This document shows, piece after piece, positions 40,824 to 41,476 of a stretch of 54,876 bases of DNA. How positions within the stretch are numbered: the first letter of the stretch is position 1; every line of letters begins with the position of its first letter. This stretch comes from a virus (taxonomy: Duplodnaviria; Heunggongvirae; Uroviricota; Caudoviricetes), in the IMG/VR virus record IMGVR_UViG_3300030250_000013; one strand, given 5' to 3'. A program made the position numbers and the translations under genes. The notes under the pieces were generated by a model, which saw only the letters and a program-made list of their open reading frames with translations, made no database searches and was not told the DNA's origin.

Positions 40824-41144
40824 GTGATAACTATGAAACCGAATGAAAATATTACACAACTGGATATTGCTTTTGGACCTAAAAACATTGCTGAATTTCT
40901 CCCGGCGATGGGTAGTATTCCGAAAGAATTTTTCGAAAATTCTAACCCGTGGAATCAGTGGGTCAGCAAATGGTTTTTCAATGGTCTGAAAGAATACGCA
41001 GTTGCTGTTAACGGTGTGAACTTTAAACAGGCCCACGCGCATATCAAAGTGATCCTGGGTAGTTTCGAACCTAAACACGAACATAAAATTGCCGGGTGTG
41101 CGTATCTCGCGTCAATGTGGTTTGTACCGGAGACACTAAAATGA
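40824..41144 (+). CDS. hypothetical protein
   Basis: 106-aa ORF. Confidence 0.45.
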   Translation: MITMKPNENITQLDIAFGPKNIAEFLPAMGSIPKEFFENSNPWNQWVSKWFFNGLKEYAVAVNGVNFKQAHAHIKVILGSFEPKHEHKIAGCAYLASMWFVPETLK

Positions 41145-41476
41145 AAATAAATATGGGAAACGGTAAAGTAATAATTGACGGTAGGGAATTTACAGGACGT
41201 AAATTTGAAATTAACGGTGATAAAGTAATTGTTGATGGCATACAGGTTGATGGTAATCTGGTTGGTAACATATCTATCAGTGTTTATGGTGATGTTGAAT
41301 CCATTGAAACGACTAACGGTGAAGTTAACATTTCAGGAAACAGTGGAGATATCAAAACGGTTAACGGTAATGTTTCTGTTACTGGGGATAGCGGTAATAT
41401 CAAAACAGTTAATGGAAATATTACTACAAAGTCATGTACTAATTCACATTCCGTCAACGGTATCATCCGTAACTGA
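41141..41476 (+). CDS. repetitive beta-strand protein
   Basis: Start at ATG 41141 after GGAGA; repeats of the type GD(V/I)xx(I/V)xT(V)NG(N/E)V(S/N)(I/V)(S/T)G(D/N)SG(N/D)IKTVNGN; corresponding DNA repeats at 41340-41420. Confidence 0.45.
   Translation: MKINMGNGKVIIDGREFTGRKFEINGDKVIVDGIQVDGNLVGNISISVYGDVESIETTNGEVNISGNSGDIKTVNGNVSVTGDSGNIKTVNGNITTKSCTNSHSVNGIIRN

Follow-up and report, generated by a model that had tools for sequence, protein, structure and literature searches.

The target gene and its product

The Caudoviricetes record IMGVR_UViG_3300030250_000013 comprises 54,876 nucleotides (nt), and this whole stretch of DNA is referred to as the window. It represents a 9NA/Sashavirus-type siphophage and, in the local region, shares 95% identity with Escherichia phage KarinMuster_Bas82. 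Between the portal and large terminase genes, the plus strand carries a small gene (41141-41476; the target gene), whose ATG lies at 41141 and whose stop codon ends with base 41476. The product of 111 amino acids (MKINMGNGKVIIDGREFTGRKFEINGDKVIVDGIQVDGNLVGNISISVYGDVESIETTNGEVNISGNSGDIKTVNGNVSVTGDSGNIKTVNGNITTKSCTNSHSVNGIIRN) has a calculated mass of 11.6 kDa and an isoelectric point of 5.2, is predicted to be soluble and all-beta, and falls into PHROG 3163. The open reading frame (ORF) and the product sequence given in an earlier note on this DNA were both borne out. The most informative properties of the gene were absent from that note: it is a single-gene cassette, and it belongs to a very large family borne by mobile elements.

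The ATG shares bases with the stop codon of the ORF before it (ATGA); ahead of it, a Shine-Dalgarno-like GGAG was read in the sequence at 41129-41132 on the plus strand, with a spacer of 8 nt. The longest mechanically called ORF begins at a competing GTG at 41096; the ATG at 41141 was preferred because homologues begin with the same MKI-M N-terminus as the target protein. Neither a signal peptide nor a transmembrane segment was found in the target protein, and we regard ORF 41141-41476 as a genuine gene for a soluble all-beta protein of 111 residues that is made without a signal peptide.

A single-gene cassette in a hypervariable slot

DNA homology to the phages Bas82, AVIO78A, 9NA and Sasha stops at 41146-41154 and restarts exactly at 41480, so that the plus-strand segment without homology to these phages (41155-41479) is essentially the ORF itself. 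In all four phages the slot is filled by other, unrelated small ORFs, and the target gene was absent from all 9NA-like/Sashavirus close relatives compared. Because homology ends at around 41150 and resumes at 41480, and because close relatives have other ORFs at this position, the target gene is, by the pattern of DNA homology, a cassette of one gene that occupies a hypervariable slot flanked by portal and terminase. Its G + C content of 34% is the lowest of the neighborhood, the portal and terminase genes having 45-50%.

Homologues were found by tblastn in 56 phage records, none of them exceeding 60% identity; the highest value (54%) was obtained for Citrobacter phage K1M. Near-identical copies were restricted to a metagenomic phage contig with the gene in the same slot (97%) and to one IMG/VR contig (100%). 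The latter copy lies at 4001-4333 of L019 (IMGVR_UViG_3300014770_000007, 39.6 kb), which probably is the window's phage or its sibling. A DNA search of 5,426 complete E. coli genomes revealed no prophage copy.

Repeat architecture

The earlier note had described the protein as consisting almost entirely of ~17-residue repeats. This holds for residues ~45-111, the C-terminal 60% of the protein, which are built from repeats of 16-19 residues; it does not hold for residues 1-44, which have no profile similarity to the C-terminal repeats. Specific to the family, the N-terminal residues 1-44 (41141-41272, plus strand) make up five short strands that all end in [DN]G; in the target protein the series reads VIIDG/REFTG/RKFEING/DKVIVDG/IQVDG. 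This region probably caps one end of the repeat stack.

Residues 45-111 (41273-41473, plus strand) comprise approximately 3.5 rungs of a two-strand repeat with the consensus G-[DN]-h-x-[TS]-x-[SN]-G-[DN]-h-x-h-x-x-x-x. On the plus strand, rung 1 spans residues 51-69 (41291-41347; GDVESIETTNGEVNISGNSG, 19 amino acids), rung 2 residues 70-85 (41348-41395; DIKTVNGNVSVTGDSG, 16 amino acids) and rung 3 residues 86-103 (41396-41449; NIKTVNGNITTKSCTNSH, 18 amino acids), followed by a partial rung 4 of residues 104-111 (41450-41473). The protein has 16 self-matches at an offset of 16 residues versus 8.7 ± 1.5 in shuffled sequences, a value equalled in one of 5000 shuffles; the 16-residue periodicity exceeds chance.

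Near-identical DNA repeats had also been noted at 41340-41420, and this claim had to be dropped. The top DNA self-match reached just 78-80% identity over 30-36 nt at a 48-nt offset (41342 versus 41390) and 62-71% over 48 nt, a general repeat search gave imperfect 13-23-nt matches only, and Tandem Repeats Finder reported nothing at the target locus. With the empty Tandem Repeats Finder output and a top self-match of ~80% over 30 nt, an origin by DNA tandem repetition was rejected. As read from the sequence, the repeat is an old one at the protein level and not a recent DNA duplication.

PHROG 3163 and its distribution

The target protein matched the PHROG 3163 hidden Markov model (HMM) with an E-value of 1.7e-18 and 67.7 bits, residues 3-102 aligning with profile positions 9-109 of 121; by this match it is a member of PHROG 3163. 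The family has neither a function annotation nor a Pfam model nor a studied member, and nothing relevant was found in the literature on PHROG 3163, the homologue accessions, the Yersinia phage discussed below or phage bactofilin-like proteins. When 1.84 billion cluster representatives were searched exhaustively with HMMER, 1636 relatives, counted at 50% identity clustering, were obtained at E ≤ 1e-3, 373 of them at E ≤ 1e-10. Nearly all are stand-alone proteins of 107-160 amino acids, mostly 110-140; longer members (156-402 amino acids) had no recognisable added domains, and hence no Rosetta-stone fusions were available. A signal or transmembrane-like segment was present in two of 146 sampled members; the few members with such features include P0082 and P0021 (signal peptide) and P0091 (C-terminal transmembrane anchor). 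The family alignment contained no stretch of 7-10 columns conserved enough to seed a locus search.

Family members occur in phages of Klebsiella, Vibrio, Aeromonas, Erwinia, Acinetobacter, Escherichia, Yersinia and Fusobacterium, and relatives were found by fold match in giant-virus proteomes. By tblastn, the family is present on 174 plasmids, 107 of them conjugative, including IncI2 resistance plasmids, Serratia plasmids, ~30-kb E. coli plasmids and phage-plasmids. Examples are NZ_KP091735.1 (11799-12215; L025 4911-5327), NZ_CP143342.1 (74447-74794; L026 3980-4327) and NZ_CP045281.1 (17611-17961; L022 6001-6351). On IncI2 plasmids the gene lies ~6 kb from the mobC/relaxase junction and is transcribed toward it, with ssb, psiB and ardA not nearby. 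The Serratia plasmids carry the family gene directly after trbC and before a PLD-family nuclease gene, and the ~30-kb E. coli plasmids carry it upstream of genes for a ParF-like ATPase and ParG. A cellular occurrence is a lone gene on a 667-kb contig. Ten context proteins were tested, and all were confirmed by the family HMM (E 1e-28 to 1e-46).

Family genes are often inserted on the opposite strand, as lone genes in late modules or in hypervariable slots. The temperate phage TL-2011b has such a lone gene between TerL and the late gene that follows. In L006, a phage contig of 59.8 kb, an opposite-strand family gene is inserted between the tail tube gene and the tape-measure gene and has a superinfection-immunity gene as its neighbor. 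The family member and the superinfection-immunity gene (PF14373) of L006 (4960-5142 and 6001-6339) are separate opposite-strand insertions, which flank the region between the tape-measure and tail-tube genes. All nine proteins encoded in the two plus-strand blocks flanking the portal gene were compared by tblastn with nine homologue contexts, and the target gene alone was shared; no partner gene recurred across the phage, plasmid and cellular contexts examined. Because of the lone opposite-strand insertions in late modules and the lack of a recurring neighbor, the family gene, as judged from these gene arrangements, behaves as a dispensable accessory gene ('moron').

In a large phage contig (L008, 1176-4075), the family member directly follows a gene pair encoding a Pribosyltran_N protein and a NAPRTase-family (Nampt-like) protein. 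Pairs of the Pribosyltran_N/NAPRTase type occur in phage NAD-salvage modules, and the adjacency in L008 may be coincidental.

Relationship to the Toastrack superfamily

The Toastrack domain (PF13349, DUF4097, unified with DUF2154 and DUF2807) is found in LiaF, LiaG, YvlB, VraT and many PspC C-termini; the domain is described as a right-handed beta-helix that resides inside the cell and has two extended sheets. A role as a platform for signalling complexes beneath the membrane has been proposed, and in most cases the domain is fused with PspC or LiaF or linked to them (PMC11237479). When the family profile was searched against 5.8 billion proteins and judged on the 120 best matches, the only proteins found beyond the family itself were PF13349 carriers (YvlB-like, 250-480 amino acids; E 1e-17 to 1e-10), with no PF04519 (bactofilin) protein among them. 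In an hhalign comparison, the family aligned with 30 PF13349 proteins at 97.4% probability and E 1e-11 over 76 columns, with residues 40-111 placed on the T-x-SGDV repeats. Residues 45-111 alone gave 97.3% (E 2e-11), and residues 1-44 alone gave no match to the Toastrack profile. Reversed profiles used as controls gave 7-15% (E 2-5e-3), and column shuffles gave nothing.

A genome scan with a synthetic consensus probe retrieved nine long canonical Toastrack-type proteins (280-524 amino acids) and no family members. Four of the nine reached E ≤ 10 with the family HMM, each matching it two to six times and with the repeat part only; cellular Toastrack proteins align to the family HMM only from positions ~32-54 onward. 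PF13349 was weakly matched by 14 of 146 family members (best E 1.1e-5). By these profile comparisons, the repeats of residues 45-111 are homologous to the T-x-SGD beta-helical repeats of the Toastrack superfamily. PspC, LiaI-LiaF-TM, SHOCT-like and transcription-factor/helix-turn-helix links were not found in the window neighbors or in ~14 homologue contexts. The family was not placed in PF13349 because three Toastrack features are missing from it, namely the seven-stranded N-terminal region, a tether to the membrane and the partners in the operon; it is a stand-alone, mobile-element variant related to Toastrack.

Predicted fold

AlphaFold2 modeling with a four-sequence alignment gave a mean predicted local distance difference test (pLDDT) score of 82. 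With 146 family sequences the pLDDT rose to 90 with a predicted template modelling (TM) score of 0.78, and all five models reached at least 87 and were all-beta. The strands of the model comprise residues 2-12, 15-18, 21-25, 28-31, 34-36, 45-59, 61-65, 68-75, 78-91 and 94-106. According to the DSSP string of the model, strand runs that pass through the G-D/G-D-S-G corners would fit stacked solenoid rungs and not isolated hairpins. BFVD models of viral relatives superimposed on the target model with TM-scores of 0.88-0.93. Conserved positions are the turn glycines, the following [DN] and alternating inward-facing residues that are hydrophobic or small (Ser/Thr); outward strand positions are variable. 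The C-terminus follows directly on the last rung without a cap. The claim of a beta-solenoid-type fold, for which the earlier note had proposed structure prediction, was supported by the confident all-beta model together with the Toastrack repeat homology.

Weak Foldseek matches of the model were mostly to beta-solenoids, none of them significant. PDB sequence homologues were found with neither the four-sequence nor the 146-sequence profile; this is uninformative because the canonical Toastrack profile likewise finds no solved structure by sequence.

Genomic setting

The target gene is part of a five-gene unit on the plus strand (40824-42254), which is flanked by the portal gene (39335-40690, minus strand) and the large terminase gene (42381-44144, minus strand) and transcribed opposite to both. 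A sigma70-like promoter candidate (40773-40801, plus strand; TTGACG-17-TATGCT, 9 of 12 consensus positions) lies in the 134 nt that separate the portal start from the divergently transcribed first gene of the unit. Promoter-like sites were not enriched over shuffled sequences, and the site remains a candidate; the label 'early-type block' in the earlier note is an assumption. The first gene of the unit (40824-41144, plus strand; 106 amino acids, PHROG 36680, function unknown), whose stop overlaps the target start, is kept in the Sashavirus/9NA relatives. The gene following the target (41489-41818, plus strand; 109 amino acids, PHROG 1972) encodes a protein with a CxxC...C zinc-ribbon-like N-terminus that matches the double zinc ribbon PF07191 at E 1.6e-4, under the cut-off; it is conserved in relatives without the target gene. 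PADLOC-DB contained no match at E ≤ 1 for the target protein or its two neighbors. The two distal genes (41812-42254, plus strand) encode small hydrophobic proteins of 53 (PHROG 16556) and 91 amino acids (PHROG 15669), the Sasha homologue of the latter being annotated with three transmembrane domains. Thus, the statement that the target lies next to membrane proteins is correct at the operon level, with the hydrophobic 53- and 91-residue products, and incorrect for the immediate neighbors, which are soluble.

The portal and TerL genes each stand alone on the minus strand, split by plus-strand islands of small genes (36961-39302, 40824-42254, and from 44393 onward), with bidirectional terminator-like hairpins at 39307-39328 and 42355-42372; the second hairpin lies between the end of the plus-strand unit and the end of the terminase gene. 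This split of packaging genes across islands is unusual and is also seen in 9NA-like phages. Between the end of the plus-strand block and the terminase gene (42255-42380), the window is devoid of ~2.1 kb with four to five minus-strand small genes that relatives contain. This segment is present in Bas82 and in the metagenomic sibling contig (L001 4634-6730; L002 3981-6077), and across the gap the homology jumps from window position 42355 to 42349-42400. In the other plus-strand island, beyond the portal gene, the 110-residue product of 38970-39302 (plus strand) matches Pfam DUF2560 at 26.5 bits (cut-off 25) and PHROG 571 (function unknown). In the same island, a 154-residue ORF (37832-38296, plus strand) is weakly similar (31% over 89 amino acids, E 2.7e-5) to a K1M gene (L003 4104-4367) located directly downstream of the family member of Citrobacter phage K1M.

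Functional interpretation

The explanation that best covers the data as a whole is that of a genuine Toastrack-related repeat protein of mobile elements that, as a small beta-helical module in the cytoplasm, binds other proteins and plays an accessory role; we assign it a probability of approximately 0.55. In the host cytoplasm, the target protein would offer other proteins a rigid beta-helical surface to bind to, as proposed for cellular Toastrack domains, and its uncapped C-terminal rung may serve edge-to-edge pairing. The role would probably be dispensable and directed at the host or a competitor (host modulation or inter-element conflict), and not at virion assembly or replication. Three things led to this interpretation: the analogy with Toastrack, a conservation that is purely structural while the surfaces vary, and the movement of the family, one gene at a time, through hypervariable slots of phages and plasmids. 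Since the conserved residues are all core or turn residues and the exposed strand positions are free to vary, the protein may be considered a scaffold with a binding surface that differs from lineage to lineage. The cytoplasmic location is suggested by the scarcity of signal or transmembrane-like segments in the sampled members.

Several observations weigh against this interpretation. Foldseek searches of the PDB with the shallow and deep models gave no match at E < 0.1 and a top TM-score of 0.43; the solved Toastrack structures 4QRK and 4OPW were not among the top 50 matches of the confident model, and 4ygu reached a TM-score of 0.22 with the shallow model only. The target protein itself did not match PF13349 in Pfam even at E ≤ 1, and PADLOC and NCBIfam returned nothing for it. 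The Toastrack alignment used for hhalign had been built from family-profile matches, albeit with independent Pfam assignments. The protein has its own 44-residue N-terminal part instead of the seven-stranded region that defines Toastrack, and it is free-standing, whereas cellular Toastrack domains are usually membrane-tethered (PspC, LiaF). No conserved gene neighborhood points to a partner, so that the functional part of the interpretation consists of analogy and context. Finally, one homologue is labelled 'particle associated', which is compatible with a structural role, and relatives in giant viruses speak against any single bacterial target.

An alternative, in line with the polymer-forming protein proposed in the earlier note, would be a self-polymerising cytoskeletal or filament element of the bactofilin or amyloid type, whose monomers stack via exposed rungs. 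The repetitive beta-helical architecture, uncapped after the last rung, would suit such stacking; four of 146 members weakly match Pfam Bactofilin (best E 5.5e-5), one BFVD relative was named 'Bactofilin' by its depositor, and the top Foldseek E-values, none of them significant, belong to the beta-solenoid polymers FapC, bactofilin and CsgA. However, the target protein does not match PF04519, and the out-of-family profile matches considered above were all to PF13349. The solved bactofilins (2N3D, 6RIA, 6RIB) gave TM-scores of 0.15-0.26 (E > 0.5) and the FapC/CsgA amyloids (9U4U, 8ENQ) TM-scores of 0.10. The 44-residue N-terminal region fills one end of the stack, so that at most tail-to-tail dimers are expected, and the monomer, modeled with high confidence as a closed unit, has neither disordered tails nor an N-terminal membrane-targeting peptide. 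A polymer-forming protein is thus unlikely, and the claim was not sustained.

Equally, a minor virion or tail-associated protein, such as a small decoration or a tail-fibre-associated beta-helix, appears improbable. The homologue in Yersinia phage fHe-Yen8-01, encoded just upstream of the tail-fibre gene, is the one annotated as 'particle associated protein'; the gene lies inside structural modules in several phages, and PGAP or depositors have named homologues 'phage tail protein', 'tail-associated lysozyme' or 'baseplate hub', besides 'bactofilin'. The Yersinia record, however, flags the large terminase in the same way, which makes the label unspecific, and the names 'phage tail protein', 'tail-associated lysozyme' and 'bactofilin' are unsupported by the present analysis. 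All close relatives make the same virion without having the gene, it is transcribed opposite to the structural genes in the window, TL-2011b and L006, and it is also found on conjugative plasmids and a cellular chromosome, where no virion is made. A T4 gp5-type beta-helix was tried as a candidate and rejected: the family profile retrieved gp5 chains from the PDB sequences at a non-significant E 0.29-0.77, and gp5-type helices are obligate trimers.

An envelope-targeting effector, as also considered in the earlier note, that is secreted and works with the small membrane proteins of the operon, either on the membrane or in the periplasm, is very unlikely in the secreted sense: it would agree with the operon shared with two small hydrophobic proteins, with the few signal- or anchor-bearing members (P0082, P0021, P0091) and with the action of Toastrack domains beside the membrane, but neither the target protein nor 144 of the 146 members has a signal or transmembrane segment, the membrane-protein genes are kept in relatives without the target gene, which itself moves without them, and Toastrack domains are predicted to be intracellular (PMC11237479).

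Within the protein-binding reading, a bolder and quite improbable version would see these mini-Toastracks as molecular decoys that dock by their edge strands on host assemblies for signalling or defence beneath the membrane, be these of the Toastrack type or otherwise beta-helical. A free four-rung fragment with an exposed terminal rung might cap or disrupt such assemblies and thereby blunt envelope-stress or abortive responses while a phage or plasmid becomes established. If true, this would define a new class of phage and plasmid host-interference proteins and provide the first function for PHROG 3163.

As one more member of an uncharacterised family, the target gene itself is modest news. 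The family is very large and mobile, one gene at a time, yet it is without a Pfam model, a name or a studied member; genes so distributed often take part in conflicts between mobile elements and their hosts, and many clinically relevant plasmids carry it. The useful new point is the link of this widespread mobile-element family to the Toastrack repeats of bacterial envelope-stress systems, which offers a structural handle and the testable idea of a free beta-helical interaction surface.

Comparison with known systems

Among functional amyloids, the curli and Fap systems (CsgA, FapC) differ in that the target protein has no Sec signal peptide and the window contains no csg or fap genes. Bactofilins (PF04519; BacA, CcmA) resemble the target protein as small cytoplasmic beta-helices of ~110 residues with glycine-punctuated repeats of similar period. 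Their rungs, however, have three strands (triangular helix), and they carry disordered tails and polymerise from both ends, whereas the 16-residue rungs of the target protein have two strands each, tails are missing and the N-terminal region is of a different kind. The top geometric match of the model was the C-terminal beta-helix of MinC (PDB 4V02 chain D; TM-score 0.43 over 73 residues, root mean square deviation 2.8 Å), a small right-handed beta-helix that serves as a protein-protein interface. With an E-value of 2.2, a probability of 0.44, 16% identity and no profile similarity, this match is a resemblance in shape only.

Members of PHROG 3163 have the same size and stand-alone architecture as the target protein, from which they show no structural difference. 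Compared with Toastrack proteins of 250-500 amino acids, the target protein is much reduced, with ~3.5 rungs in 111 amino acids, and its family is borne by mobile elements and not by envelope-stress operons. The two share a repeat unit of ~16-18 residues with two strands per rung and the T-x-SGD[VI] signature, and both are predicted to be intracellular; the target protein may also have the two extended sheets.

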